Positions 5,066 through 38,242 of a DNA stretch of 40,033 nucleotides are shown here, one piece after another. The stretch is from a virus, in UHGV virus genome UHGV-0235137; one strand, 5' to 3'. Position 1 is the stretch's first letter; every line of letters starts with the position of its first letter. The position numbers and the translations under genes were made by a program. The notes beneath the pieces are model-generated. The model was not told the origin of the DNA and made no database searches. It worked only from the letters and a program-made list of their open reading frames with translations.

Positions 5066-6667
5066 ATGGACTTAAATGCTGTTAAGCAGAAGCGAGTGGA
5101 AGATGTTAGGAAAGTCCTAGCTGGAGAGTTGGGGCTTTCTGATGAAGTAAAAGAAATTATCAAATCATTCGGTAAAGACCCCTCTAAATTCCTTCCAACT
5201 CAAATTCTGACTTTATTAAGATACACACCAGACCAAGTTAGACTTATCTTCAAATTGATGACTGATAAGAACTATGTAGCCCCTCAGCCGGGTTCTCAAG
5301 AGGTCTTTTTAAATACTAATGCTGATTTGGTTCTCTATGGTGGTGCTGCTGGTGCTGGTAAGACGGCTGCATTGTTAATGGACTCTTTAAGGTTTATTGA
5401 TGACCCTAACTATAACGCTGTCTATTTCCGTCGAAACACAACACAGTTACAAGGTGGTTTGTGGCCTGCTGCAAAGAAACTATTTGGTAAGTTTGGTGGG
5501 GTTCCTCACGAGCAGAAGATGACTATCACATTCCCTTCTGGGGCAACTATCAAGTTTACCTACCTAGAACTTGAAAAGCACGCTGAAGGTCATCAGGGTA
5601 TTGAATACTCAGCTATTTACTTTGACGAAGGTACGCACTTCTCTGCTTCACAGATTTCATACCTACAGACTCGTCTACGTTCTGGGGCTGAAGGTGATTC
5701 ATACATGAAGATTTCTATGAACCCAGACAGAGACCACTTTATTTACGATTGGGTAGAACCATTCTTAGATGAAGAAGGTTACCCAGACCCTGAAAAGTGT
5801 GGTCGTATTCGTTGGTATGTAATGAATGATGGTGTTATGGTTTCTGATTGGGAGAGGGACAAGATTCTTGAAATGTTTCCTCTTGAGATTCCTCAAACAT
5901 ATACATTCATCTCTGGTACGATTGATGATAACCCAATTCTTGACTTCTTAGAACCAAAGTATCGCGGTAAGTTGGAAAACAACACTCCTGTAAACGTTGC
6001 AAGACTTCGTTTCGGTAACTGGAAGGCTCGTGCAGAAGGTTCAAACTATTGGCAAAGACAATGGTGTGAGATTGTTGATTCACTCCCAGAAGATGTATTC
6101 GATGTCAGAGCATGGGACTTAGCAGCAACTTTACCATCTGAGATTAACCCTAATCCAGACTGGACAGCAGGTGTTAAGATGGGTAAATCTAAAAAAGACG
6201 GTTGCTATTATATCATTGATGTAGTAAGATTTAGAGATAGACCCTCTGGAGTCGAAACACAAATTAATTTGACTGCTGAAAGTGACGGTAAGCGAACTGG
6301 TATTTTTATCCCTCAAGACCCAGGCGCTGCTGGTAAATCCTACGCGACATCCCTCATCAGGAAACTTGCCGAGAAAGGCTATCGTGCAAGAGCTAAACCA
6401 ACAAATAAAGATAAAGTTACCCGCTTTGCGGGATTTTCTGCTGCTTCTGAAGCTGGACTTGTAAAAGTCTTGAGAGGTAGCTGGAATGAAGCTTACTTTC
6501 AAGAGCTTGAAGGCTTTTGTGGTGATGGCAAAACTAAAGATGACCAAGTGGATGCTACCAGTGATGCTTTCAACAGTCTTAACGAAGTTAAATTATTCAA
6601 GCCACCATCAATGGGTGCTCACACAGACTTAGTGAGAGGAAACCCATATGAGGGGCTTAGACGTTGA
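5066..6667 (+). CDS. terminase large subunit
   Basis: Walker A GGAAGAGKT, Walker B-like YFDEG, size about 530 aa, followed by portal-sized gene; start moved to the ATG after a GGAGG RBS. Confidence 0.85.
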   Translation: MDLNAVKQKRVEDVRKVLAGELGLSDEVKEIIKSFGKDPSKFLPTQILTLLRYTPDQVRLIFKLMTDKNYVAPQPGSQEVFLNTNADLVLYGGAAGAGKTAALLMDSLRFIDDPNYNAVYFRRNTTQLQGGLWPAAKKLFGKFGGVPHEQKMTITFPSGATIKFTYLELEKHAEGHQGIEYSAIYFDEGTHFSASQISYLQTRLRSGAEGDSYMKISMNPDRDHFIYDWVEPFLDEEGYPDPEKCGRIRWYVMNDGVMVSDWERDKILEMFPLEIPQTYTFISGTIDDNPILDFLEPKYRGKLENNTPVNVARLRFGNWKARAEGSNYWQRQWCEIVDSLPEDVFDVRAWDLAATLPSEINPNPDWTAGVKMGKSKKDGCYYIIDVVRFRDRPSGVETQINLTAESDGKRTGIFIPQDPGAAGKSYATSLIRKLAEKGYRARAKPTNKDKVTRFAGFSAASEAGLVKVLRGSWNEAYFQELEGFCGDGKTKDDQVDATSDAFNSLNEVKLFKPPSMGAHTDLVRGNPYEGLRR

Positions 6668-6683
6668 TAGCTAGGTGAGAAGA

Positions 6684-8150
6684 ATGGCAGAAATTACAGA
6701 AACACAAGAAAGCTTACCACCATTTAGAATGGGTGAAGTAGGTTCTTTGGGTCTGAAGGTTAAGAATGGAAGAATCTATGAAGAACCTCGTCAGGCACTA
6801 AGGTTCCCTGAAAGTATTAAAACTTTCCAATTAATGATGCGTGACCCTGCTGTAGCAGCATCTGTGAATATTATTAAGATGTTTGTCAGAAAAGTCAACT
6901 GGAGATTCGTACCTCCAAAGGGAAAAGAGCAAGACCCTAAAATGCTTGAAAGAGCAGACTTCTTTAATTCTTTAATGGATGACATGGAGCATGATTGGGC
7001 AGATTTTATTAACTCTGTAATGTCATTCTGCACTTATGGGTTCTGTGTTAACGAAAAGGTTTATAAGAAACGTCAGGGTAAAAAAGGAAAGTACCAGTCA
7101 AAATTTGATGATGGTCTAATTGGGTGGGCTAAATTACCAATCAGAAACCAGTCAACACTTGATAAGTGGTATTTTGACGAAGACTTTAGAAAAGTTACTG
7201 GTGTTAGACAGAATCTGAGAAATGTTTCACATATTGCTGGAGCAATTAATCTTGGAGAAAGACCACTAACAAGAAAACTCCCACGAGCTAAATTCATGCT
7301 GTTTAAGTATGACGATGAGTATGGTAACCCAGAAGGTCGTTCACCATTACTTAATGCTTATGTACCGTGGAAGTATAAAGTACAGATTGAAGAGTATGAA
7401 GCTGTTGGTGTTTCAAGAGACTTAGTAGGTATGCCAAAGATTGGTTTACCACCAGACTATCTAGATGAGAATGCAGAACCTGAAAAGAAAGCTTTCGTAC
7501 AATACTGCAAAACTGTTGTTAATGATATGATTGCTAATGACAGAGCAGGTTTAATCTGGCCTAGATATATCGACCCAGATACTAAAGAGGATATCTTTGA
7601 GTTCTCATTAGTTTCTAGACAGGGTGCTAAAGCATATGATACAGGTTCTATTATTGATAGATATTCCAAGCAGATTATGATGGCATTCATGTCAGATGTT
7701 CTTGCTATGGGTCAGTCAAAATATGGTTCATTCTCTCTTGCAGATTCTAAGACAAGCCTATTAGCAATGTCAGTAGATATTCTGCTAAAGCAAATTAAGA
7801 ACGTAATTAACCGTGATTTAGTTGCACAGACTTATGCTCTTAATATGTGGGATGATGAAGAACATGTACAAATCACATATGATGATATCGAAACTCCAGA
7901 CCTTGAAGCAATTGGTTCTTATATTCAGAAGACTGTTGCAGTAGGTGCTTTGGAAGTTGACAAAGAGCTATCTAACAAACTTAGAGAGCATATTGGTCTT
8001 CCTCCTGCTGATGAGTCTCAGCCAGTATCTGAAAAGCTTTCTCCAAATAGCCAAAGCCGTTCAGGAGATGGTTATAAGACCGCTGGGGAAGGTACTGCAA
8101 AGACACCTTCAGCGAAAGACCCAAGCACAGCAAATAAGGCAAATAAATAA
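6684..8150 (+). CDS. portal protein (candidate)
   Basis: about 490-aa ORF directly after terminase; assigned by position and size; ATG at 6684 preferred over GTG at 6675. Confidence 0.6.
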   Translation: MAEITETQESLPPFRMGEVGSLGLKVKNGRIYEEPRQALRFPESIKTFQLMMRDPAVAASVNIIKMFVRKVNWRFVPPKGKEQDPKMLERADFFNSLMDDMEHDWADFINSVMSFCTYGFCVNEKVYKKRQGKKGKYQSKFDDGLIGWAKLPIRNQSTLDKWYFDEDFRKVTGVRQNLRNVSHIAGAINLGERPLTRKLPRAKFMLFKYDDEYGNPEGRSPLLNAYVPWKYKVQIEEYEAVGVSRDLVGMPKIGLPPDYLDENAEPEKKAFVQYCKTVVNDMIANDRAGLIWPRYIDPDTKEDIFEFSLVSRQGAKAYDTGSIIDRYSKQIMMAFMSDVLAMGQSKYGSFSLADSKTSLLAMSVDILLKQIKNVINRDLVAQTYALNMWDDEEHVQITYDDIETPDLEAIGSYIQKTVAVGALEVDKELSNKLREHIGLPPADESQPVSEKLSPNSQSRSGDGYKTAGEGTAKTPSAKDPSTANKANK

Positions 8151-8650
8151 TGGCTGAAGTTATCTCTATTTCAAATGCTACACGAGTGCATTCGTATAGG
8201 GGTGTCCTTATCATTACTGATAAGCTATCTGTAGAGGCTGGCTCAAGGGTCAGCCTTTCAGGTTATGTTAGTGATGGTGGAATCTCTGACGTTTTCACTA
8301 TTTGCAGGTTACTTGATGCACCAATGAGTGGAAAACCGTTTATTTCAGGAAATTGTAGTGAAATTGTTAAAATTCCATTTGACAGTTCATGCCTTTTGGG
8401 TGTAAAGTTATATAACTGCGAGAATAAACGTATCAATGTTAATAGCATTGAAGCCGCTTTCATTACCCTCGATACTGCATTTCAATCTCCAATGACAGTT
8501 AATAAAGAAACAAACAGACTTGAATACATTTTTTCACAAAATGATTACAAAGTACTTGTCAAAGGTAAAGTATATGATATGATTGTAAATGTGGTAGATG
8601 AATCTGGTAACCATTCAACAGTCCTTAAACAAAAAGTAAGGTTTAATTAA
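8150..8650 (+). CDS. hypothetical head-module protein
   Basis: 166-aa ORF whose start overlaps the portal stop. Confidence 0.5.
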   Translation: MAEVISISNATRVHSYRGVLIITDKLSVEAGSRVSLSGYVSDGGISDVFTICRLLDAPMSGKPFISGNCSEIVKIPFDSSCLLGVKLYNCENKRINVNSIEAAFITLDTAFQSPMTVNKETNRLEYIFSQNDYKVLVKGKVYDMIVNVVDESGNHSTVLKQKVRFN

Positions 8651-8982
8651 TGGGAACATTAACTATTGATGGTAAGAATAAAATCCTCGCCACGCTAACC
8701 CCAACGACTATTATTTTACACAATGTAGACCCAACGGCAGACCCTACAGCAAATAAGGTTACTCAGCCAGTGGCTATTTATTTTTCTGAACCGGATAATG
8801 GCTTAATTGCCTCAGAAGACACAGTTGATATTACTGTTCCAGCTTCTGCAACGGTCTCACACTATAGCTTGTGGGATGCTAACGATAAATGCGTGGCAAC
8901 TGGTGCTCTTAGCAAACCTCAATTCTTTGCTGAAGAAGGTATCTATGTTATCTCTTCAGTCTCTGTAGATTTAAACAAATAG
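8650..8982 (+). CDS. hypothetical head-module protein
   Basis: 110-aa ORF in the same orientation, start overlaps the previous stop. Confidence 0.5.
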   Translation: MGTLTIDGKNKILATLTPTTIILHNVDPTADPTANKVTQPVAIYFSEPDNGLIASEDTVDITVPASATVSHYSLWDANDKCVATGALSKPQFFAEEGIYVISSVSVDLNK

Positions 8983-8993
8983 GGTGAGTAAAA

Positions 8994-10340
8994 ATGAGTT
9001 CGAATATCTTCAGACTTGCTGATAGATTATTCAACCAACCTTTACTAGCCACTGAATCATTAGCTCACTCAGCAGCAACTTATGTGAATAACAGATTGCT
9101 GGGTGATGTCCAAGCAGCAGTAAACTTTGATACCCCAAAAGGTGATGCAAGAAGTCTTTTAAAAGTAAAAGATGATATTGCTATTATCCCTATTATGGGT
9201 GGCTTAACCCATCGTATGACATTCATTGATGCAATGTGCACAGGTGGTTTAAGTTCTTATGAAGGTTTACGCAGAGGCTTTGACGAAGCTTTAGCAGATG
9301 AGTCAATTAAGACTATTGTTCTGCACATTGATTCTGGTGGTGGTGAAGCTTCAGGTTGCTTTGAATTAGCACGTCACATTATGGCTTCAAGAGGCCAAAA
9401 GAAAATTATTGCTTATGTAGATGAGTTCGCTTGTTCCGCTGCATATGCTCTTGCATCTTCTGCTGAAGAAATTATTGCATCACCAGATGCAGATGTTGGT
9501 TCTATCGGTGTAATCATGGTTCATCAGGAATTAACTAAGGCATTTGAAAAGAATGGCGTAACAATTAACGTCATCAAAGCTGGTGAGTTTAAAGGTATGG
9601 GTTCACCATTCCAAGCACTTTCAGAAGAAAGCAAAGAAAGACTTCAAAAGAGAATTAATGATACCTACACAACCTTTACAGGTTTTGTAGCTGAATCTCG
9701 TAATCTCTCTGAAGAAGCTGTAAAGAATACTGAGGCGAATGTTTATTCTGCTCAGGAAGCTCTTGAACTTGGTTTAATTAACTCAATCATGTCTCAAGAT
9801 GATTTCTTAAATTACTTACAAGGTTCTGAAGAGGCTCCTGTAAGTTTAAACGTTAACAATTCAGGTGAAGAAATGACTGAACAAGAAAAGCAAGAACTAG
9901 AAGCTTTGCGTCTTCAGGTTGCTCAAATGAAAGCTAAAGAACAGGAAGCTGCTTTGTCAGATTTGACTAATAAGATTTCTGCTTCTGCTGAAGCTTTTGG
10001 ATTTGATGCAAAAGAAGCTGCAATGACTATTTTAGGTGCTGGTCTTGATAACCCTCTGAGTGTTCTGTTTATGAATGCTATGGAAGGTGCTAACCAGAAA
10101 CTTAATGAAACTATCGCATCCCATGCTTCTGCAATGGAAGAAAAAGAATCAGAAATTACCAAGCTGAAAGAAACTGCTGGTGCTGTTCTTGAACATTCCA
10201 ACGCTATGGAAGAAGTGGGTAATGACGGCGAAGCTGATTTGGTTGAAGAAGAAAAAGAACCAGCTAAGAATGCTTCCGAAGACACCGCTGAACAACGCAA
10301 ACTGGCTCTCCAGAATGCTCTAAAATCTCTTATTAAATAA
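8994..10340 (+). CDS. prohead protease (S49/ClpP-like, lambda C-like) fused to a coiled-coil scaffold-like C-terminal region
   Basis: N-terminal region with glycine-rich and ...CSAAYALAS... serine motif resembling SppA/S49 peptidases; Glu/Ala/Lys-rich C-terminal half; sits between portal and capsid genes. Confidence 0.65.
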   Translation: MSSNIFRLADRLFNQPLLATESLAHSAATYVNNRLLGDVQAAVNFDTPKGDARSLLKVKDDIAIIPIMGGLTHRMTFIDAMCTGGLSSYEGLRRGFDEALADESIKTIVLHIDSGGGEASGCFELARHIMASRGQKKIIAYVDEFACSAAYALASSAEEIIASPDADVGSIGVIMVHQELTKAFEKNGVTINVIKAGEFKGMGSPFQALSEESKERLQKRINDTYTTFTGFVAESRNLSEEAVKNTEANVYSAQEALELGLINSIMSQDDFLNYLQGSEEAPVSLNVNNSGEEMTEQEKQELEALRLQVAQMKAKEQEAALSDLTNKISASAEAFGFDAKEAAMTILGAGLDNPLSVLFMNAMEGANQKLNETIASHASAMEEKESEITKLKETAGAVLEHSNAMEEVGNDGEADLVEEEKEPAKNASEDTAEQRKLALQNALKSLIK

Positions 10341-27906: not shown

Positions 27907-28278
27907 ATGAAGTGGCTAGAGGAAGCTTTTAAAAATAATATTGGTGCAATTGTAGTTGGTATTTTTAGTGTTATTGGGATGTATACCACCATGCAAGTTT
28001 CGGATGGTAAACAAGAAGTGTCTATCACAACAAAGTTACAGCAGTTAGATAATTATTCCAAAAGTAATTATTCAGCTATTCGTGATTTACAGTCTGATAT
28101 GAGGCTGCTTCAGCTAGGGATGGAGAACCAGAAAGTCCAGTTAGAGAATGTTAAGGGTGAGAATGCAAAACTTACTAAGACTCTTGATAAATTCTCTGAT
28201 AGTGTGAACAATCTGGCTCAATCAGTATCAGCCCTCCAAGCTATTACTGAAAAGAACACAAAGAATACTGAAAAGTAA
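27907..28278 (+). CDS. membrane-anchored coiled-coil protein (lysis-associated candidate)
   Basis: N-terminal hydrophobic segment then heptad-like polar region; start overlaps previous stop. Confidence 0.45.
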   Translation: MKWLEEAFKNNIGAIVVGIFSVIGMYTTMQVSDGKQEVSITTKLQQLDNYSKSNYSAIRDLQSDMRLLQLGMENQKVQLENVKGENAKLTKTLDKFSDSVNNLAQSVSALQAITEKNTKNTEK

Positions 28279-28285
28279 AGTTTAA

Positions 28286-28311
28286 GGCTCCTTTTTACGG
28301 GAGCCTTTTTT
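28286..28311 (+). terminator. rho-independent terminator at the convergence of + and - gene blocks
   Basis: hairpin ggctcc-ttttac-gggagcc followed by tttttt. Confidence 0.6.
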
Positions 28312-28314
28312 GTT

Positions 28315-29214
28315 TTATTTACCTACTGACAAAGGTGCTTCAATCTTTCCTGCATGTTGGTAATTGTTAATACCACCAATAAAGTCACTTGCAGTGAGAT
28401 GTTTTAAGTCACTTAAAGTGTTAAGTGGGATACCAATCTCAAAAGTTGGTGCATGGAACTCTTCATTGTTCATCAGTTCATAAACCTGCTTCATATGATT
28501 CTGATAAATCTGAGTATCTCCAAAGACACCTATCAAGTACCGTGGAGTGTACCCAGTCATCTTACAAAGAACTTCCAGAATAAAACCATAAGATGCAATA
28601 TTAAACGGAAGTCCTAAAAAGGTGTCTACTGAACGCTGATACCATTGTAAATCAACTTCACCTCCATTAGTGATATAAATCTGAAACAGAACATGACAAG
28701 GTGCTAAAGCCATTGAGTTTGCTGCAATATCTGCTGCATTCCAAGCATTAACAAGCATGTAACGGTCTGTGATATCACCCTTCATCTTTGTTACTAAGGT
28801 CTCTAACTGGTCTACAACACAACCATTATGACCTTCAAAGTTTCTCCACTGAACTCCGTAGATTCTCCCACCTGCATCTTCTAACCAATCTTGTTCAGAA
28901 GAATAGTTAGAGCTTAACCAGCGTTTAAAATCATCTGACCAGATAGTCCAACGTTCCCCATCATTTTCACCCCAAGTACGATAACGGAGTTCACCCAGCT
29001 TATTCTCGCCATTCAGGAACCATAAAGCTTCCCCAATAACTTGCCGTGTAAACACCTGTTTAGATGTTAAGAGCGGGAAACCAGTTCGCATATCAAAACG
29101 AAACTGAGGTGGAGCAAATGCAGAGATGACATCTCCAGTTCGTGTAGTACGCAGTTCACCAACTGATAAAACATGGTTCAGGATATTTTTGTAACTTGAA
29201 TCTGCTTGTGACAT
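28315..29214 (-). CDS. thyA: thymidylate synthase
   Basis: GFPLLTSK...ALWFLNG and catalytic ALAPCH motifs characteristic of ThyA. Confidence 0.95.
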   Translation of the reverse strand: MSQADSSYKNILNHVLSVGELRTTRTGDVISAFAPPQFRFDMRTGFPLLTSKQVFTRQVIGEALWFLNGENKLGELRYRTWGENDGERWTIWSDDFKRWLSSNYSSEQDWLEDAGGRIYGVQWRNFEGHNGCVVDQLETLVTKMKGDITDRYMLVNAWNAADIAANSMALAPCHVLFQIYITNGGEVDLQWYQRSVDTFLGLPFNIASYGFILEVLCKMTGYTPRYLIGVFGDTQIYQNHMKQVYELMNNEEFHAPTFEIGIPLNTLSDLKHLTASDFIGGINNYQHAGKIEAPLSVGK

Positions 29215-29215
29215 A

Positions 29216-29761
29216 TCAAAAGTGTCCTTTTACTTGTGGAACATAAATTTCAAAAGTTGCTTTACCATCCTCTGATGGTTTTGACTGTACCTTTGTAAAT
29301 ACACGGTTATCATACAGCTTCTCAAAGAAGTTTTCAAAAGGTAAATGCACAGTGGCCTCTTCAGTCACTTTATGAAAAACAGTATGGAACACCACACCAG
29401 CATACGGTAAAGCCTTTACAAGGACACCTGCACCACCAATTACAAAGACATCTTCATCAATAGAGCTATCAAGATACTTCAAAAATGCTCCAAATGACTC
29501 TTTACTGGCTTTAGCATACATTACATCATCTTTGCCAAAGTCTATGCCTAAGTATGGTACAGAGTTTGTTAAGATGAGGTTTGCACGTTCTGGTAAAGGT
29601 TTACTACCCAGAGTCTTAAAAGTCTCATTACCCATAACTACTAAGTTATTTTTAGTGAGTCTCTTAAACTCTTGCATGTCCTGTTTATGTCGAGGCCACG
29701 GCATACCAGTTGGAGTACCAAACTCCCCATTTTCACCACTTGCAAAGATTAATTTAATCAT
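29216..29761 (-). CDS. folA: dihydrofolate reductase
   Basis: N-terminal IFA...GMPW motif and LILT segment typical of DHFR; adjacent to thyA. Confidence 0.9.
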   Translation of the reverse strand: MIKLIFASGENGEFGTPTGMPWPRHKQDMQEFKRLTKNNLVVMGNETFKTLGSKPLPERANLILTNSVPYLGIDFGKDDVMYAKASKESFGAFLKYLDSSIDEDVFVIGGAGVLVKALPYAGVVFHTVFHKVTEEATVHLPFENFFEKLYDNRVFTKVQSKPSEDGKATFEIYVPQVKGHF

Positions 29762-30018
29762 TTTGTAAATCCTTTCTTAATGAACCAGTTGATAACATTC
29801 TTCACAGCTTTATTACTATGGTAGATTAAGTGTGGTGTAGGTTGGTATAAACCATAAGCCCAGAAAGCAATGATTTCATTACATCCTGTACACCTTGTAC
29901 TCTCTTCGGCAATATGACCGTTGACTATTTCACTTACCTCACCTTGTAAGTCTGTACACCCACAATGTGGGCATCGGATAGGTGTTCCATCAGACTCATA
30001 GCAGTGTTCAATTTTCAT
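29758..30018 (-). CDS. small zinc-ribbon protein (hypothetical)
   Basis: CPHCGC ... CTGC cysteine pairs. Confidence 0.5.
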   Translation of the reverse strand: MKIEHCYESDGTPIRCPHCGCTDLQGEVSEIVNGHIAEESTRCTGCNEIIAFWAYGLYQPTPHLIYHSNKAVKNVINWFIKKGFTK

Positions 30019-30534
30019 TTATTTAACCTCAAAAACTGGCTCAAGAGCCAATATAAAGTCTACACAGTCATCTTCTTCATCCAGAATACCATCAAAGTTC
30101 TTAGGAACGAAGTCGAAGAGGCTCATAACAAAACAGTCAGAAGTAACCCTTATAGTGCCTCCCATATTCTCTACAGTCAACACTGTACGACTTTCTTTTA
30201 CCTCTCGCAGAAGATTGCTCACAAAGTCATCTAAGAAGTACTTCATCAGTGACTTAAAGCCTTTAGGGTAATCTGTACCAGAGTATGTTTCAATCTGAGG
30301 TACAAGCTTAACATTTATACTAGTCTTTGCTAAGAACGTGCTAGAGAACATACTATCAGGTAACTTGCAAACAGTCTTTCCAGTGCCTTCATGCTCAATC
30401 TCAACAAAACCAGCTTCGTCGCCACATGTAACTATTTTAAAAGATGCTTCATTCTCATACTGTGAAGCCATAAACTTTTTAAGCATCACTTTAAGGAAGT
30501 CTGCATGAGCATCTTGCAAGTAGATATCAATCAT
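30019..30534 (-). CDS. hypothetical protein
   Basis: 171-aa ORF, tightly packed with neighbours. Confidence 0.5.
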   Translation of the reverse strand: MIDIYLQDAHADFLKVMLKKFMASQYENEASFKIVTCGDEAGFVEIEHEGTGKTVCKLPDSMFSSTFLAKTSINVKLVPQIETYSGTDYPKGFKSLMKYFLDDFVSNLLREVKESRTVLTVENMGGTIRVTSDCFVMSLFDFVPKNFDGILDEEDDCVDFILALEPVFEVK

Positions 30535-30547
30535 AATTCATCACCTA

Positions 30548-30907
30548 TTATGGGAACAGACACTTGATGTCATCGTTTTTGAAAACGAAACTTGTGTAGT
30601 TGTGACCGTCAACATCCAGCCAAACCGCCTGAACATCTACACCATCAAGATTGTGGTAAAGCTCTTTGATGAAGTGGTCTTTCACAATCTGACTGCTGGT
30701 TGTTTCCAGCTTAATGTTTGAGATTGCTGAACCTACAGCCATATAACCCATGACGCGTTTCTTCTCAGTATGCTTAATCTTACCATCTTTGTAGGCCATA
30801 ATGAGATTGGAAAGAATCTTCACACCATAATATTTTTCAAGGTGAGTCGGTACACCATAAAAACCTAATGCGAAGTTTTCAGAGTGGATAATGTTTTCAC
30901 GTTTCAT
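30548..30907 (-). CDS. hypothetical protein
   Basis: 119-aa ORF. Confidence 0.5.
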   Translation of the reverse strand: MKRENIIHSENFALGFYGVPTHLEKYYGVKILSNLIMAYKDGKIKHTEKKRVMGYMAVGSAISNIKLETTSSQIVKDHFIKELYHNLDGVDVQAVWLDVDGHNYTSFVFKNDDIKCLFP

Positions 30908-30908
30908 A

Positions 30909-31208
30909 TTAATCTGCCAGCCTTAAATTAAAATTAACACCAAATTTTTCGCATACTTCCAACATAAACTCAAGAGAGACATTACCAGTGAGATTGATTA
31001 TGTTGGATACACGAGCCTGAGAGATACCACAAATTTTAGCAACTTGCTCTTGAGAAAGACCTCTGGATTTAATCTCTCTCTTAAAACGATGTGCAACGAA
31101 ATCTCTCATTTCGTCTACATCCATTGGACAAATATAACTCTCCATTTCAGCCTCTCTGTCAGCCTCCCAATCATCTTGTGGAGCATAAGGGTCAAAAGTC
31201 TCATTCAT
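30909..31208 (-). CDS. helix-turn-helix DNA-binding protein (XRE/Cro-like regulator)
   Basis: LSQEQVAKICGISQARVSNIIN HTH segment; ATG at 31208 overlaps the upstream stop in ATGAATGA; ORF-track TTG extension to 31238 rejected. Confidence 0.65.
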   Translation of the reverse strand: MNETFDPYAPQDDWEADREAEMESYICPMDVDEMRDFVAHRFKREIKSRGLSQEQVAKICGISQARVSNIINLTGNVSLEFMLEVCEKFGVNFNLRLAD

Positions 31209-31413
31209 CTTTCTTCTTCCGTTTACGTGAAGTGTCAATCAATGAATCTATGTTTGTAGCCCTAACCTTTTCACGTTCATCGTTAAGATAATCGTCAAGA
31301 ACTTTTTCAATCTGTGAATCATCTTGACAGATAACTGTAAAGACTGTAAAGCCGTCTGTATCGTCAATTATCTTACCATAGCCGCTTCTGGGATGTAACT
31401 TTTTAAGAGCCAT
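31201..31413 (-). CDS. hypothetical small basic protein
   Basis: 70-aa ORF translationally coupled to the HTH gene. Confidence 0.5.
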   Translation of the reverse strand: MALKKLHPRSGYGKIIDDTDGFTVFTVICQDDSQIEKVLDDYLNDEREKVRATNIDSLIDTSRKRKKKDE

Positions 31414-31414
31414 A

Positions 31415-31723
31415 TCAAATACCTGTGCAGCTTCTGTTTTCTAAGAAATACTCAACACCATACATAGCTTTTTGCATCAAATCTTCTTTAAACTGAATAC
31501 GATGATTAAGCATAGCCTGTACATCAATATCATCATGGTGCTTCTCTTTAATATTTGCAGATTGCAGGAAATACTCTGCAAGAACACGATACTGATAGTC
31601 AGTTACCTTGTCAGTCATCTCTGTTAAAGACTCTTCAGAGATTGGTTTAAGTAACTCACCATTAGCCAGAGCAACACCTTTAACAATCTGGCAAGTGTCT
31701 TCTGGAACACCTGATAAGTCCAC
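31415..31723 (-). CDS. hypothetical protein (start uncertain; ORF track uses GTG)
   Basis: 102-aa ORF; an alternative overlapping 57-aa ATG ORF with a better RBS exists at 31624-31797. Confidence 0.4.
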   Translation of the reverse strand: MDLSGVPEDTCQIVKGVALANGELLKPISEESLTEMTDKVTDYQYRVLAEYFLQSANIKEKHHDDIDVQAMLNHRIQFKEDLMQKAMYGVEYFLENRSCTGI

Positions 31724-31841
31724 ATTTGGGAGTTCTGTTGCATTGACTGTAAATTCATTGACATAACCATTGCAGCAGCTAATAAAATCTTTTTCATAAT
31801 GACCTCAAAGCTATATTAAATTTTGTATTACATTGGATATA

Positions 31842-31871
31842 AAAATAAGCTATAACACCTGACTTGTCAAC
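31842..31871 (-). promoter_or_regulatory. possible leftward sigma70-type promoter overlapped by an 11-bp inverted repeat (operator-like)
   Basis: minus-strand TTGACA (plus 31865-31870), about 17-bp spacer, TATTTT; inverted repeat aataagctata (31844-31854) / tatagcttatt (31878-31888). Confidence 0.35.
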
Positions 31872-32229
31872 AGATTTTATAGCTTATTTTGGCAGATTTT
31901 TTATAAGGATACTGCCATCCTTCCATACCAGACCACACCATGCAAAACCAGACTTCACATCACCCTACCGTGCAATACATCACTTAAAAACCCTCTTAGA
32001 AGACTCTTAAGTGATGCTGGTGAGTACACGTTGGTTTATGCTGCTCAGTATACTCACCAAATTTTCTATGTCAACAACTTTATATAAAAGCCCTGATAGC
32101 TATATGTGTTACAAAACAAAAGATTGTGAACAAAACACCCATTGCAAAGGATGTGTTCAAAAGTTTACTTGTGATGTAAGACAATACAAAGACAACTAAT
32201 GCAAACAGAATGATTGTGCTTAACATAGT

Positions 32230-33333
32230 TTACTCATAATCCCTAATAACTAGCCCAACAGGGAACTGTAAAGAACCCTTACGAGTCATCTTCTGGAACT
32301 GAACCGTTAGAGGCTTCCCGATAAACTCTTCAGGATGCTCAGCAAGATACTGTTTCTTCTCACGAGTAGTCTTCCATGAGACATCTACAAAGACGTTAGG
32401 AAGAGTCTCTACAACGAACTTGCCATGACCACGCTTATCAGTCTTTACACCAGTCACTTTAAACTCTTCAGTGTGCATCTTCTTGTGCTTAATCAAGAAG
32501 TATGAACGGTGACAACACTCATAGAAGGAGTCTTCAGAGATTGAACGGTACATTGCACCTTCAAACTTAGCCTCAACCCACTTATCATGAGCTTCATCAA
32601 ACTCTTCCCAAGAATTTACACGACGAGACTTAACAGGAACAACTTTACAGCCGTCTCTAAAGTCATTCAATGGTGAAGTCTCAATAATATCTCTACGCTC
32701 AGGCCATGTCTTAGTACTGTCACAGATATCGTACCAGTAAAACTTGAGCAAGTGTCTGTCAGAATTGTCTTCATTTTTAATCATAGAGACAATATCTTCT
32801 AAGTCCCACCCATGAGCATAAATCTCACCATCAAATTCATCAACATCTTTGTGGAGCCTTAACATTGCCATAATGTCAGGTATTAGTTCAGTAGGGATTT
32901 TGTAAACAGTATTTTCACGAGAGTATGCTGTGAATACACTGCCAATACTTAAGTGCCTTGAAATCCTACAACGGACACCATCAAGTTTCGGTTGAGCATC
33001 AGCAGGGAACTTCAGATACTTTGCATGGCTAACCTTTGCAGCATCATGAGCAAGCTGTACACCTACCTTTTCAGTATTCTGTGCAGACTCTTTTGTGTAA
33101 GCATAACCTTTACGGTCAACTTGCTTTTTATACTTAGCAGCAACTTCAAAGAGAGCTTGCTGCTCAGCGTTACGCTCATTCTTTTTACCGATGTTTTTAG
33201 GTTCTGCTGTATACTCTTCAAACATCATCTTGCCATTTTCTTTACCGTAGGTTGTAATAACTTTGTCACCTACAGCAACACATGACCAGACGTTAAAAGA
33301 GCCGTCTTTATTTTGTTTGTATAGAATTGTCAT
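32230..33333 (-). CDS. ATP-dependent DNA ligase
   Basis: adenylation motif I KLDGVR (PKLDGVRCR); size about 367 aa as in T7-type phage ligases. Confidence 0.9.
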   Translation of the reverse strand: MTILYKQNKDGSFNVWSCVAVGDKVITTYGKENGKMMFEEYTAEPKNIGKKNERNAEQQALFEVAAKYKKQVDRKGYAYTKESAQNTEKVGVQLAHDAAKVSHAKYLKFPADAQPKLDGVRCRISRHLSIGSVFTAYSRENTVYKIPTELIPDIMAMLRLHKDVDEFDGEIYAHGWDLEDIVSMIKNEDNSDRHLLKFYWYDICDSTKTWPERRDIIETSPLNDFRDGCKVVPVKSRRVNSWEEFDEAHDKWVEAKFEGAMYRSISEDSFYECCHRSYFLIKHKKMHTEEFKVTGVKTDKRGHGKFVVETLPNVFVDVSWKTTREKKQYLAEHPEEFIGKPLTVQFQKMTRKGSLQFPVGLVIRDYE

Positions 33334-33412
33334 TTATTTCTTGCCTCACAAGCTATACACCCTTTTGAATAGAATGAGTGCCAATCGCACCCACCAAAAT
33401 CTTCTTTGATGA

Positions 33413-33661
33413 TTAAATTGGATTTGTTGCTTTCTTGTATCTTTCGTAGTAATCTAAACATTTTTCATCCATATCGGCTATATACTGTTCGTAGTAATCG
33501 TCTATTCGTGGCTTCACAAAGGATGCTTTTGCCTTACAATAGTACTCCTCATAGGAGTAATTATTCATCCAAGAATTAAAAAGTAGTATGTTTTCGCCAC
33601 GCTTTGGTGGCATTCTTAAACTTTTCTTGTATAATTCCTTCATTTCTTGAGTTATCTTCAT
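33413..33661 (-). CDS. hypothetical protein
   Basis: 82-aa ORF. Confidence 0.5.
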   Translation of the reverse strand: MKITQEMKELYKKSLRMPPKRGENILLFNSWMNNYSYEEYYCKAKASFVKPRIDDYYEQYIADMDEKCLDYYERYKKATNPI

Positions 33662-33861
33662 TGCATATCCTTAATCTTACCTAAGAACCTTACACCACAA
33701 TTATTACACTCGTATATGTCTAAATTTGTGTTATCAGGTTTATGAAAACAGTTTGACCCACAACGACACCGGAATAGTTTACCATCAACACGGAGAATAA
33801 ATGTTTCAAGCTCACCCTCTTCTGTAAGGACGGCGTTCTTAAACTTATCTTCTACAGTCAT
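33658..33861 (-). CDS. small zinc-ribbon protein (hypothetical)
   Basis: CRCGSNC ... CNNCG cysteine pairs. Confidence 0.5.
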   Translation of the reverse strand: MTVEDKFKNAVLTEEGELETFILRVDGKLFRCRCGSNCFHKPDNTNLDIYECNNCGVRFLGKIKDMQ

Positions 33862-34064
33862 TTTCTCTTACCACCAATCTCTACGTCGATAACCTGAACA
33901 TCACCAGCAACATCAAACTTATGAATGATGCTTCCCACAGTGTAAGTCCAACCCTCGATTCGAACCAACTCACCTTCTCGTGGGACGATTGGATTACGTT
34001 GAGCTACGGTTGTAGTGGAGTGAACAACATCATAACAATAGATATAGTTTACTAGGACTTCCAT
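33858..34064 (-). CDS. hypothetical protein
   Basis: ORF-track 33858-34163 trimmed to the internal ATG at 34064, which has a GAGGT RBS and removes the overlap with the lipoprotein gene. Confidence 0.45.
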   Translation of the reverse strand: MEVLVNYIYCYDVVHSTTTVAQRNPIVPREGELVRIEGWTYTVGSIIHKFDVAGDVQVIDVEIGGKRK

Positions 34065-34074
34065 CGTGAAAACC

Positions 34075-34311
34075 TCACTCAATAACCGTAGTATGTGATT
34101 GACCATTTTTACCATATTTATAAGATGTTGTTGTTTGAGAGTTTGGACATCTGACAACAACAATATCTATGCTTACAGTATCTCCATATAGCTTATAGAC
34201 CTTGCAATCTTGCATCTCTGGTGGGAGGCTATAAGAAGCATTCTTATCTTCATAAGAAGGGTTACAACCAGTTAGAAAAATAACACCAAGTGCAATTATT
34301 ACTTTCCACAT
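34075..34311 (-). CDS. small lipoprotein (signal peptide with lipobox LTGC)
   Basis: N-terminus MWKVIIALGVIFLTGC: positively charged start, hydrophobic core, L-T-G-C lipobox. Confidence 0.6.
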   Translation of the reverse strand: MWKVIIALGVIFLTGCNPSYEDKNASYSLPPEMQDCKVYKLYGDTVSIDIVVVRCPNSQTTTSYKYGKNGQSHTTVIE

Positions 34312-34326
34312 AACACATCTCCTGTT

Positions 34327-34482
34327 TTATTGTTCACGATGTTCTACTTCTCTGTATGTACGCCGGTAGTTTATGATGAGAGGTGCTAATTCGTTGCTTT
34401 TAACATTAGAACGTAACAATTGCCAATCAAAACCTTTGGCGACTCTGCCATATAAATTGAAAAACTTTGCTTTGCGTTTCAT
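34327..34482 (-). CDS. unlisted small ORF (51 aa), candidate
   Basis: hand translation MKRKAKFFNLYGRVAKGFDWQLLRSNVKSNELAPLIINYRRTYREVEHREQ; GGAG RBS 9 nt upstream; below ORF-track length cutoff. Confidence 0.35.
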   Translation of the reverse strand: MKRKAKFFNLYGRVAKGFDWQLLRSNVKSNELAPLIINYRRTYREVEHREQ

Positions 34483-34500
34483 TTTTGGTGTCTCCAATAC

Positions 34501-34713
34501 TCAAAAGTTAATATTAATACGTTCACCCTTAAGGACTCCTGTACGGTCTCTTGCAATCTTACCGTCAACAATGAGGATATGCGCAGACTTTAAAGATTCA
34601 CTATTAAAACCTTTTACGAACTTACTAGGCATCACCACAATAAGCATCTCTTGAATCAACTCTGGAGTATAGCAATTGTCGTGAAGTTGCTGAATAACGT
34701 CTGCAAGTGTCAT
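34501..34713 (-). CDS. hypothetical protein
   Basis: ORF-track 34501-34728 trimmed to the ATG at 34713, preceded by GGAG and overlapping the upstream stop in ATGA. Confidence 0.5.
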   Translation of the reverse strand: MTLADVIQQLHDNCYTPELIQEMLIVVMPSKFVKGFNSESLKSAHILIVDGKIARDRTGVLKGERININF

Positions 34714-34919
34714 TTTTGATGTCTCCAATATTCAATGTCAATAAGTTCTTGTGCAATGCTTTTCAGATTACCTTTCAAGAAAACCTTCTCAGAACCTGAA
34801 AGAGATGAATTGTCAATTAACCTGTTCATTCTCTCAAACAACTTCTGTTTACGATTCTTGATAGTTTCCTTTGAAGCACCTTTCATCATTGCTGCATGGG
34901 TTCTTCCACGGTGGCTCAT
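34710..34919 (-). CDS. hypothetical small basic protein
   Basis: 69-aa ORF. Confidence 0.5.
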   Translation of the reverse strand: MSHRGRTHAAMMKGASKETIKNRKQKLFERMNRLIDNSSLSGSEKVFLKGNLKSIAQELIDIEYWRHQK

Positions 34920-34970
34920 AAGCCCTCCTATATAAGATATTGTATAAGGTACTCTTCCATGAGCACCTTG

Positions 34971-35483
34971 TCAACTTAGTTTTGCAAACTCTCCGTGGAG
35001 TTTCATAGCAGCTTCACAGTAAGCTTTATGGGCTTCTTCTTCTGTTATGTATGTCCCTATATGCACTGTCTTGCCATTATGGTTAACCTGTGCTTTCCAC
35101 TTACCAGATTTGCTTCTACTTGTACCTTTCAAGTTTTTTGATGTTCTAGGTTGTCCCCTATTAGACATGTTCTGTTCTTTTGTGGCCTCTCTAAGATTGT
35201 TCCAAGCATTATTCAAACCATCTCCATCTTTGTGGTCAATGTGTTTATCAGGCCACTTACCTGTCATCCAGAACCAAGCAATTCGGTGATTACCTGTTCT
35301 GTATCCTAGAATCTGTGTGTGCATATACACACCAGACCTTGTGCGCTTGATTGCTCCGGCTTTGCTTCCAATAACCACTCTACTACTATGTGGAGGTCTT
35401 CCAATCCATGTTAAGACCCCTGTTTCGGGGTCATAGTCTAACCAAGATTTTAACTGTTCATGTGTGAATCCACAATCCCGCAT
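34971..35483 (-). CDS. HNH homing endonuclease with AP2-like DNA-binding domain
   Basis: HIDHKDGDGLNNAWNNLREAT HNH motif; C-terminal GKWKAQV...HIGTY...EEAHKAY AP2-like segment; directly downstream of the polymerase gene. Confidence 0.8.
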   Translation of the reverse strand: MRDCGFTHEQLKSWLDYDPETGVLTWIGRPPHSSRVVIGSKAGAIKRTRSGVYMHTQILGYRTGNHRIAWFWMTGKWPDKHIDHKDGDGLNNAWNNLREATKEQNMSNRGQPRTSKNLKGTSRSKSGKWKAQVNHNGKTVHIGTYITEEEAHKAYCEAAMKLHGEFAKLS

Positions 35484-38182
35484 CAGTGTACCTCATACCA
35501 CGATTTACCAACCTTACCAGTACCTGTAACAAGCGTTTCTTTCTTAAGACCTAAGTTCTTAGAAGCTTGTCCATAATACCAGTCAGTAACTGCTTTCACA
35601 TCTGCCGTCATACTTTCTGGACATTCCCAACTCGTCTCATCGTGATATGCGCAGAGCAAACGAGCACCAATAGCTGGTTGACGACCATTCAACTTCATCA
35701 AACCTTCGTCAATCATACGACGACAAGCAAGGTTAATTGCCTCATTTTGAATCTGAGCCTCTGAACCCATCAAAAGATAGTTCAACAGTTTGTGTGGAGA
35801 TTTACACCACAACCAAGCTCCAGCAACCTTTACAAAACCACCTTTAGAGATTGCAGCAGTCTTACCAAACACCTCTTCAAGTGCCTTCTTAGTTGCTTTG
35901 TAGTCAGCTTCCAAGTCATCTAGCAGCTTCTTAATCTTAGGCAAACGGATAAAGTAAGTCTGCTTAGTCAGTGCACCTTCCTGAGTAGTTGCAGCTTTAA
36001 TCGTCTTAGCAAACTTCTCATCACCTGCACCGAACAGCAGTGCATAGATACCATTCTTAGCTTTCTTACGACCCTTGCTAATCTCATGGAGAAGGTTCTC
36101 ATCCTGAGTAGCTCGACAAGTCAAGATATCCTGCTCATCATTCAAGCTAAAGTAAATACTGTTCAGTGTGTGTGCATCAGTCCCTGAATAGACAACGTAA
36201 AGGTCGTTCTCAGAGTCATAGCGAAGGTACTTATCAATCTCTGGGTTGAGGTACTCATCAAAGTGTTTGCAGTAATAGCGTCCATCTTCTTGACGAATAA
36301 ACTCAATCTCTTCTTTACCTTGCGTTACCGCTTTGGTGAAGTCTTTGTCACCCATAAAGTTACAAAGAAGAACTAGCTGGGCTGAGTTCATGTCTACAGA
36401 GACAACGTTAGTACCTTCTTCACAAATCCACACTGCCCTCATTGGTTCCCCATAGACAGCAGCACCAGACGGTACGTTTACAATACCATATTGTGTCATA
36501 CGTCCAGTTGAAGTACCAAACACCATTGCACCAGCACTAAGGCGACCATCAGGACGAATCTGGTTCAACCAACCTTTTTCATCATCCTTTGAGTTCTCAA
36601 TAGTTCTGCGTCGGTGCATCAAAGTATAGTACTTAGCAATTTTCTGTCCAAGCTCACCTTCAATCGTATCATAAGATGACTCAGTAAGTTTTGGTGAAGT
36701 ACGGATTAAGCAAGGTTCAAGCAAATCTGTGTACTTCTTAACAGACCAGTTATGCTCAATGTACTGGACACCTTCATGTTCAACATAACTCAAACCACAC
36801 CGTTCAACCATCTCCTGCCATTTAGGATGCTTTGTAATCATCTTTTTGTTGTCTTTGAAGCGACAAACCTTAACAGGACGACCATCAGAGTCTTTCTTAT
36901 AGTTCCAGTCATCTGGAATCCAACCAACTGATTTCAAGTAGTCTTTAACAACTGCTACCTGAGTCATACGAGAAACTTCGAACTCAATTGGTGTATATGG
37001 TGCATCAATCAAACCTGTGTAGCGACTTGACTCAAGTTCAAAGTGGTTAACAACATGACTGTTATAGTACTTCACAGTTTTAACTGTTTTTACTGGCTTC
37101 CAGTCTTTGCATTTCTTACCAATCTTTGCGTTCAACTCATTGCAAATTGCACGAGCATCCTTCATTGCTACAAAGCCTTCCTTGTACTCTTCACCAGTTA
37201 CAGAGTTGGTTGGTGTATAGCAATTCCGCTTTTCAATGTTAAAAATCTTGGTAGTTGGTTTACCAAATGGCTTGATTTCATATGTCTGCATCTCACCATT
37301 ACGTACCTGCTGACGATACTTTGTCTTAGGGTACTTAGTAATTCTCTTCAGTCCATCTGCATGACCGAATGCTTCAACATACTCATTCCAAGCTTTTGCA
37401 AATTCTTCTCCAGTAACTTTACCTTTGGTCTTAATAGTTGGTGGAAGGTGTGGTTCAACTTCTGAAGCAAGCTCATTAGTCAACTTGTCAAGTTCCTTTA
37501 CATGGAACTCCATAAGTTCTTTATCAGCTTTCCAACCATTAATAGCTTGTTGACTCATCCAGAAAGATGTTTCTTTAGCTCGCATGTAGGTTTCATAAGT
37601 ATCTACGCCACACTTCTTCAGCTTAAGATATTCATTATCCAGTGCACGTTTAGTTTTGGCGTTAATACGGATATCTTCCACAACACGAGTGAATATTTCT
37701 GCATTCCACACACCCCAATGTTCAATCTCTGGTTTACGGACACCAACACGAGCACCCCATGCTGCCAAGCCATGAGCACCCTTATAGCCCTTTGGAGTTG
37801 GTCTATCCATCCACTGAACACGAGACTGGATAAGAGAATCCTGAAAGAAATTACTCCACGGCTTACACTTTGGATTATCAAAGTTCCACAAATCAGGTGC
37901 AATGTGATTGAAAACCCACCAGTCATATCCCAGACCATTATGGATGCAAAGTCGTTTTGCCTTTAACGCAAACTCAACACCTTCACGCAAGCCACCCTTA
38001 ATGTACTTGGTATACTTGTGACCGAGGATAGGCTCATCTGTAAAGACCCATACAGGTGGCTCTTCATCGTCAGATTTATAGTCTGCGAAAGCCATTACGT
38101 GCACTTTAGTGAACTCAAGGAGTAAACCATCAGTTTCTGTATCACCAACTAAATGTAAGTTTTTAAAATCTACGTTTTCCAT
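35483..38182 (-). CDS. DNA polymerase, family A (Pol I / T7 gp5-like) with 3'-5' exonuclease domain
   Basis: exo motif DTETDG; motif A-like SVDMNSAQL; motif B-like KKAKNGIYALLFGAG; motif C YHDE; start set at the ATG (38182) preceded by AGGGAG. Confidence 0.9.
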   Translation of the reverse strand: MENVDFKNLHLVGDTETDGLLLEFTKVHVMAFADYKSDDEEPPVWVFTDEPILGHKYTKYIKGGLREGVEFALKAKRLCIHNGLGYDWWVFNHIAPDLWNFDNPKCKPWSNFFQDSLIQSRVQWMDRPTPKGYKGAHGLAAWGARVGVRKPEIEHWGVWNAEIFTRVVEDIRINAKTKRALDNEYLKLKKCGVDTYETYMRAKETSFWMSQQAINGWKADKELMEFHVKELDKLTNELASEVEPHLPPTIKTKGKVTGEEFAKAWNEYVEAFGHADGLKRITKYPKTKYRQQVRNGEMQTYEIKPFGKPTTKIFNIEKRNCYTPTNSVTGEEYKEGFVAMKDARAICNELNAKIGKKCKDWKPVKTVKTVKYYNSHVVNHFELESSRYTGLIDAPYTPIEFEVSRMTQVAVVKDYLKSVGWIPDDWNYKKDSDGRPVKVCRFKDNKKMITKHPKWQEMVERCGLSYVEHEGVQYIEHNWSVKKYTDLLEPCLIRTSPKLTESSYDTIEGELGQKIAKYYTLMHRRRTIENSKDDEKGWLNQIRPDGRLSAGAMVFGTSTGRMTQYGIVNVPSGAAVYGEPMRAVWICEEGTNVVSVDMNSAQLVLLCNFMGDKDFTKAVTQGKEEIEFIRQEDGRYYCKHFDEYLNPEIDKYLRYDSENDLYVVYSGTDAHTLNSIYFSLNDEQDILTCRATQDENLLHEISKGRKKAKNGIYALLFGAGDEKFAKTIKAATTQEGALTKQTYFIRLPKIKKLLDDLEADYKATKKALEEVFGKTAAISKGGFVKVAGAWLWCKSPHKLLNYLLMGSEAQIQNEAINLACRRMIDEGLMKLNGRQPAIGARLLCAYHDETSWECPESMTADVKAVTDWYYGQASKNLGLKKETLVTGTGKVGKSWYEVH

Positions 38183-38242
38183 TTTTACTCCCTCTAAAAT
38201 CATTAACCTCATACATTACTGCAAAAAATTATAAAAAGCAAG

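Follow-up and report, generated by a model that had tools for sequence, protein, structure and literature searches.

A predicted early-type lipoprotein of the DUF4884 family in a Felix O1-like phage genome and its comparison with receptor-blocking lipoproteins and spanins

[quoted passage not shown] Small outer-membrane lipoproteins of phages are most often o-spanins. Among the receptor blockers, T5 Llp and Cor act on FhuA and Rtp45 acts on LptDE. The gene described here lies in the UHGV virus genome UHGV-0235137, of which the whole stretch analysed (40,033 nucleotides) is called the window below. A first-pass annotation, made from the sequence letters, had interpreted its 78-aa product as a small phage lipoprotein of an early-gene cluster and a candidate for superinfection exclusion, in the manner of T5 Llp and phi80 Cor, which block the phage's own receptor. 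The small lipoprotein and the early-type block stood up to analysis, and the receptor-blocker analogy did not. The product is not homologous to Llp, Cor or Rtp45 and is not the o-spanin of the phage, and profile matches assign it to Pfam DUF4884 / PHROG 902, a family of unknown function. We give a probability of about one half to the reading that this lipid-anchored periplasmic mini-protein acts on a conserved envelope component and not on the phage's own receptor.

The gene occupies positions 34075..34311 on the minus strand, with the stop codon TGA at 34075-34077, exactly where a 78-aa ORF had been reported at first, at that time with no strand given. The complete minus-strand ORF product of 34075-34311 is MWKVIIALGVIFLTGCNPSYEDKNASYSLPPEMQDCKVYKLYGDTVSIDIVVVRCPNSQTTTSYKYGKNGQSHTTVIE, which can be divided into MWKVIIALGVIFLTGC followed by NPSYEDKNASYSLPPEMQDCKVYKLYGDTVSIDIVVVRCPNSQTTTSYKYGKNGQSHTTVIE in the translation of the 78 residues. 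A ribosome-binding site AGGAG can be read at 34319..34323 (minus strand), 7 nt 5' of the ATG, and reading of the sequence upstream of this ATG revealed no in-frame start. A small ORF of 51 aa counted from its ATG (34327..34482, minus strand; PHROG 2381) ends 15 nt before the lipoprotein ATG, and another of 68 aa (33858..34064, minus strand; PHROG 4427) begins 10 nt past the lipoprotein stop. Both neighbours look soluble, and with gaps of this size the lipoprotein gene is tightly packed in a same-strand array. By sequence the window is assigned to a Felix O1-like myovirus, Felixounavirus, the 3 kb around the gene being 89-93% identical in DNA to many Felixounavirus genomes, and the gene itself is the ortholog of Felix O1 ORF213 and of Citrobacter phage Moogle gp40.

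The predicted signal peptide covers residues 1-15 (MWKVIIALGVIFLTG; 34267..34311, minus strand), with presumed cleavage by signal peptidase II. It has a single positive charge (K3) and a hydrophobic core of nine residues, and runs into the lipobox L-T-G-C at residues 13-16 (34264..34275, minus strand), with Cys16 at 34264-34266. As criteria for a lipoprotein we used an N-terminal positive charge, a hydrophobic core, the lipobox [LVI][ASTVI][GAS]C and a Cys at residues 15-35. The segment MWKVIIALGVIFLTGC conforms to this PROSITE PS51257-type rule, and among the ATG-started ORFs of at least 40 aa in the window no other does. Shuffling of the window (30 shuffles) gave 0.63 such ORFs per shuffled window, which means that the motif alone is not beyond chance. 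A chance ORF with a fortuitous lipobox-like motif, representing no functional gene, would be compatible with that expectation, and it is conservation, not the motif alone, that leads us to judge the gene real. The lipobox Cys is invariant, orthologs number in the hundreds and the family comprises about 1,300 clusters, and among eight Felix O1-like phages the dN/dS of the mature part is 0.00-0.16, with synonymous sites often saturated; the ribosome-binding site and the tight operon packing also speak against a chance ORF. We therefore rejected this reading on conservation, and its probability is negligible.

The lipobox Cys is present in 110/110 homologs and the canonical lipobox in 109/110, the remaining homolog having SSGC, while the sequence of the signal peptide drifts freely around the fixed Cys. 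A signal peptide of the lipoprotein type is common to all family members. Together with agreement to the PS51257-type rule, this invariance confirms the lipoprotein signal with lipobox LTGC that had been proposed initially, and Cys16 is predicted from the sequence to be the acylated N-terminus of the mature protein. According to the +2 rule of E. coli, the residue after the lipidated Cys decides sorting, and Asp at this position causes inner-membrane retention. By this rule the Asn17 of Felix-type copies predicts sorting to the outer membrane. The +2 residue varies among homologs (Glu 28, Asp 26, Thr 16, Asn 13, Ser 9), Asp being found in 26 of the 109 members, about a quarter, and occurring in enterobacterial rV5-like, jumbo and Pectobacterium homologs. 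Little can be concluded from the Glu at +2 of Vibrio homologs, since the rule is established for Enterobacteriaceae only. The switching between outer- and inner-membrane types suggests that the target of the protein is reachable from either membrane.

The mature domain of 63 aa (34078..34266, minus strand; ~7.1 kDa, pI ~5.7) was modelled with AlphaFold2, using 110 sequences for the full precursor and 150 for the mature part, and the models of both gave a mean pLDDT of 66-67. They predict a small antiparallel beta-sheet, preceded by a flexible tether at the N-terminus. In the alignment, Cys36 (34204..34206, minus strand) is invariant in the family, and residues 54-58 (34138..34152, minus strand) carry the family signature R-C-P-N-S, with an invariant Cys55-Pro56 and a Thr/Ser-rich strand next to it. 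Cys36 and Cys55 are a probable disulfide pair. The search for fold matches to the mature-domain model, which included Llp (PDB 7QJF / 8A60_B), returned none; given the moderate confidence of the model, this absence is weak evidence.

Orthologs at 63-91% protein identity were found in about 200 Felixounavirus and Mooglevirus records, and the window protein shares with them the lipobox, Cys36, Cys55-Pro56 and an R-C-P-N-S-x-T-T core. Over the alignment of 110 family members Cys16, Cys36, Cys55 and Pro56 are invariant, and N57 and K68 each occur in at least 90% of the family sequences. Between Felix O1, a Salmonella phage, and the K-12 coliphages heid and mio the mature protein differs at only 5/63 residues, and the main difference between the window copy and most Felix-type copies lies in the loop of residues 43-50 (YGDTVSI vs HGDAISR). 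The substitution rates given above indicate strong purifying selection on the mature part. Between the window and Moogle, amino acid identity is 82% for the lipoprotein, 87% for the ligase, 94% for the polymerase and 78% for the thymidylate synthase, as compared with 39-57% for the tail fibre and 63% for the tail pin. Judged by these identities, the lipoprotein evolves slowly, like the replication genes, and does not co-vary with the tail fibre.

The likeness to the receptor-blocking lipoproteins is one of general architecture. T5 Llp is made early from a phage-encoded precursor of ~77 aa, has two cysteines in the mature part and faces the periplasm (PMC9586334, as cited in PMC12685063); Cor of HK022, phi80 and N15 and Rtp45/PF24052 are likewise small lipoproteins of the outer membrane whose mature part contains cysteines. 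Size, lipid anchor, mature cysteine pair and Asn at +2 of the window protein would all suit an outer-membrane inner-leaflet lipoprotein that binds the phage's own receptor from the periplasmic side and stops further particles from adsorbing to infected cells and debris. The spacing of the cysteines is different, however, with residues 26 and 73 in Llp and 36 and 55 here. From the respective phage genomes we extracted T5 Llp, HK022 Cor, Rtp45 and its homolog in pSf-1. With signal peptides kept, hhalign aligned the family profile to Llp at 78% probability over 33 columns, a value that would favour a receptor blocker; with signal peptides trimmed, the probability fell to 0.4% for Llp (E = 0.13), 0.3% for HK022 Cor and 0.1% for the Rtp45/PF24052 alignment, scores indistinguishable from those of shuffled controls (20 shuffles for Llp). 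Homology to Llp was rejected, since the 78% came from the signal peptide and vanished on trimming, and homology to Cor and to Rtp45/PF24052 was rejected as well, their mature-profile values being at shuffle level. A match of the window protein to the Cor group phrog_1119 (PHROG 1119), which also favours a receptor blocker, is weak (E = 0.057).

The position of the gene also sets it apart from the known receptor blockers. In T5, llp adjoins the receptor-binding gene oad; rtp45 adjoins rtp44 and rtp43, and pSf-1 gp84 adjoins gp83 and gp82; HK022 cor lies ~1 kb downstream of a J-like tail gene. An exclusion factor is described as an accessory gene beside the RBP (bioRxiv 10.64898/2026.04.02.716166). 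The window gene has no such neighbour; it is situated between the genes for the polymerase and the ligase, and ~6.4 kb separate it from the tail-fibre gene. Thus the analogy with T5 Llp and phi80 Cor was not sustained, as there is no homology of the mature domain, the gene is distant from the tail fibre and the protein does not co-vary with it.

The receptors of the phages concerned argue in the same direction. Felixounavirus is among the clades that recognise LPS/O-polysaccharide, and 1,050 genome-wide screens assigned no receptor to these clades, Felixounavirus included, and found no protein receptor (bioRxiv 10.64898/2026.04.02.716166). A 7-kDa periplasmic lipoprotein presumably could not plug LPS as Llp plugs FhuA. 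The Llp family is narrow, with 34 records that are all at least 90% identical and a single receptor, whereas DUF4884 spans phages with unrelated receptors. [quoted passage not shown] A block of the phage's own receptor as by Llp or Cor is therefore disfavoured too, as the Felixounaviruses bind LPS and the family occurs in phages with differing receptors and hosts. On the other side, Rtp45 sets the precedent that an essential, conserved outer-membrane complex, LptDE, can serve as target (PMC12685063), and LptD, BamA, OmpA or another conserved protein of the outer membrane could be at once the target and an unrecognised secondary receptor, which would move the mechanism back towards the Rtp45 type. 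Weighing these points, we regard a receptor blocker as distinctly improbable.

Two further observations on names bear on this question. In the records of the jumbo phages fEgEco12 (PP777464) and vB_Ec-M-J (OQ718158), homologs are called 'lytic conversion lipoprotein' and 'superinfection exclusion protein', labels that would favour a receptor blocker. Our search for an experimental basis of these two names found none, and such names could spread by annotation transfer. In the gene table of the T1-like phage Henu8, which rests on BLAST-based annotation, ORF 6 is listed as a DUF4884 protein and ORF 45 as a Cor exclusion protein (PMC12210894), which suggests that the two proteins are not redundant. 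Superinfection exclusion was a reasonable analogy, mostly weakened by the evidence, and with no relationship to the known receptor-blocking lipoproteins it remains a guess.

The second comparison is with the o-spanins, and more generally with other parts of the lysis machinery. Like the o-spanins of two-component systems (lambda Rz1, the Felix O1/JH2 family), the window protein is a small phage lipoprotein predicted in the outer membrane, where o-spanins are the commonest of such proteins. A homolog from the Vibrio phage PhiImVa-1 is annotated 'putative spanin', and a weak match to a Rz-like spanin PHROG was obtained (E = 0.28). Unlike two-component o-spanins, however, the gene has no adjacent, embedded or overlapped i-spanin gene, and beside it no i-spanin-like type II membrane protein was found in any lineage examined. 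In Moogle, which carries the 82% identical ortholog, an overlapped i-/o-spanin pair is annotated apart from it, next to rIIB and the polynucleotide kinase gene, with a holin candidate and the endolysin elsewhere, and our comparison of the window protein with the Moogle spanins found no similarity. Felix01, Moogle, JH2 and wV8 form one dedicated family of overlapped two-component spanins (Kongari et al. 2018; PMC6139136). The 'putative spanin' label of PhiImVa-1 is probably an annotation guess, given the lack of spanin similarity and of an i-spanin-like neighbour. An identity as o-spanin was rejected because the phage group has its own i-/o-spanin pair elsewhere, no i-spanin neighbour is present and there is no similarity, and any such lysis role is highly improbable. 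Within the window, a 123-aa ORF directly after the tail-fibre gene (27907-28278, plus strand) is 93% identical to the 'putative holin' of Moogle and is followed by a strong terminator-like hairpin (28284-28307). The position of this holin-like ORF beside the tail fibre places the holin apart from the endolysin and spanins, both of which lie outside the window.

The lipoprotein gene is contained in a same-strand block (28315..38212, minus strand) which is presumably co-transcribed, as a scan revealed no convincing promoter or terminator within it. In order, the block holds the DNA polymerase (35483-38212, minus strand), an HNH/AP2 endonuclease, three small ORFs, the lipoprotein gene, further small ORFs, the ATP-dependent DNA ligase (32230-33333, minus strand), DHFR and thymidylate synthase. 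The early-type gene cluster described initially thus agrees with a location inside a block of replication and nucleotide-metabolism genes, and early or middle expression of the lipoprotein gene fits this setting. A scan for promoters and terminators gave sites no more numerous than in shuffled sequence, so that the timing of expression is unreadable from the DNA, and a search for transcript data on the lipoprotein gene found none.

The assignment to DUF4884 rests on a match to PHROG 902 (E = 9.9e-17 over residues 1-76 of the window protein) and on precomputed Pfam matches to PF16225 (DUF4884) on nearly all homologs. A local hmmscan against Pfam-A (E <= 10) returned PF16225 for neither the window protein nor 17 homologs, and scans of NCBIfam, PADLOC and local Pfam-A, together with phmmer against PDB sequences, gave no meaningful match to the window protein. 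Matches to Zn_ribbon_InsA, PepSY and similar domains were dismissed, their scores being under the respective cut-offs. An exhaustive profile search found 1,296 clusters at 50% identity with E <= 1e-3, and 797 at E <= 1e-10. All members are small single-domain proteins of about 75-150 aa, with a shared core to which the window protein conforms: the lipobox Cys, two more Cys, C-P-N-S, a Thr/Ser-rich strand and then G-K.

The family is spread over Felix O1-like, rV5-like, phi92-like, jumbo, T4-like, N4-like and T5-like phages. It was found in Ounavirinae, Vequintavirinae, Stephanstirmvirinae and jumbo coliphages of the Asteriusvirus type, in phages of Pectobacterium, Enterobacter, Erwinia and Yersinia, in T4-like phages of Acinetobacter and Aeromonas, in Vibrio Schitoviridae (N4-like) and 114-kb Vibrio phages, and in a prophage-like region of a Paraburkholderia genome. 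Comparison of six phage lineages found no neighbour gene common to them, and in each lineage examined the gene is surrounded by small early-type genes or by replication genes, while genes for receptor binding or lysis are never its neighbours. The DUF4884 gene moves as an independent cassette between many phage lineages that are unrelated and infect Gram-negative hosts. A lineage-specific synteny, absent from enterobacterial phages, was observed in the Paraburkholderia genome and in two soil metagenome contigs (270-417 kb). The order is RdgC, a ~170-aa ORF, DUF4884, a 90-aa ORF and a ~130-aa ORF, at positions 5643-9127 of the locus L010, where a Band_7 protein is inserted before DUF4884, and at 6566-9017 of both L011 and L012.

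Our literature searches found neither an experiment on any DUF4884 family member nor a functional investigation of DUF4884, PF16225 or Felix O1 exclusion. In the reading we prefer, action on a conserved envelope component, the lipoprotein would be expressed alongside the replication genes and leave the cytoplasm through Sec, with Cys16 as the site of lipidation and signal peptidase II as the cleaving enzyme. The mature part would then fold into a beta-sheet of ~50 residues stapled by a Cys36-Cys55 disulfide, on a tether of ~12 residues, and would bind some conserved component in the periplasm or envelope of the infected cell, and not the phage's own, variable receptor. The purpose is probably to condition the envelope of the infected cell, either by excluding secondary infection after adsorption, at tail-tip or peptidoglycan passage or at DNA entry, or by interfering with a conserved envelope machine.

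A related possibility is that the protein is a periplasmic factor of post-adsorption exclusion or lysis timing, functionally like T4 Spackle, Imm and RI, which would inhibit the tail peptidoglycan hydrolase or the DNA entry of a superinfecting phage, or sense superinfection and delay lysis. The periplasmic location and probable early expression agree with such a role, as do the independence from the tail fibre, the apparent indifference to the membrane of anchoring seen in the +2 variation, and the occurrence of the family mainly in large virulent phages, T4-like ones included. T4 Sp and RI work in the periplasm, as cited in bioRxiv 10.1101/2025.11.12.688109. On the other hand, no similar protein was found, with no PDB or PADLOC matches, and the gene has no linkage to lysis genes. 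Moreover, the tail lysozymes and holins of the carrier phages are very different and thus ill-suited to a single conserved inhibitor. We consider this possibility unlikely, though less so than a receptor blocker.

A broader proposal, which we hold only tentatively and think less probable than action on some conserved envelope component as such, is that DUF4884 is a widespread mobile family of phage effectors that bind one conserved envelope machine of Gram-negative bacteria and do not plug a receptor. Candidate targets would be Lpt, Bam, Tol-Pal, Lol or peptidoglycan enzymes. The disulfide-framed hairpin C-P-N-S-T-T-S-T-T might serve as the binding element, with an anchor in either membrane. 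If this is true, DUF4884 would stand for a general early 'envelope takeover', or for a broad heterologous exclusion, across myo-, sipho- and podophages.

DUF4884 lies outside both characterised groups of phage lipoproteins, yet it is conserved over ~1,300 clusters, whose range extends from coliphages of the Felix O1 type to elements of Vibrio, Acinetobacter, Aeromonas and the Burkholderia group. Phages of the Felix O1, rV5 and jumbo types are used in biocontrol and therapy. An envelope-remodelling or phage-excluding factor, if it is one, would bear on the design of phage cocktails, and the target of DUF4884 could expose a conserved weak point in the Gram-negative envelope. The window copy is an ordinary ortholog of an already catalogued domain of unknown function, with nothing surprising in its sequence. 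It is the family, large, mobile and strongly constrained, that makes a fair experimental target, and the window copy adds little to it.

Some minor observations concern the surrounding genes and the database records of relatives. The HNH/AP2-type homing endonuclease (34971-35483, minus strand), which has the DNA polymerase gene on one side and the small-ORF block on the other, is present in the heid, Sf13 and Felix O1-type records and missing at the same position in HMD-P10 and mio, and it looks like a mobile insertion polymorphism. Immediately 5' of the gene for the ATP-dependent ligase lies a small ORF (33330-33461, minus strand) for which the records of several relatives (heid, HMD-P10, mio) give a short 'DNA ligase' CDS of its own; it may be a split or mis-annotated N-terminus of the ligase. 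In the heid record (GenBank MN850577), an annotation gap holds an 86-aa DUF4884 lipoprotein ORF (HMM E = 2e-31; positions 4742-5002 of the locus L007, minus strand). The gene is present and simply uncalled in the record, and its absence from phage heid was ruled out by this HMM scan. Finally, two records labelled as Campylobacter jejuni phages ('Campylobacter phage A126/A132', GenBank MG065668 and MG065664) contain an 87% identical copy of this Felixounavirus gene, which indicates that the host label or the assembly is probably wrong.
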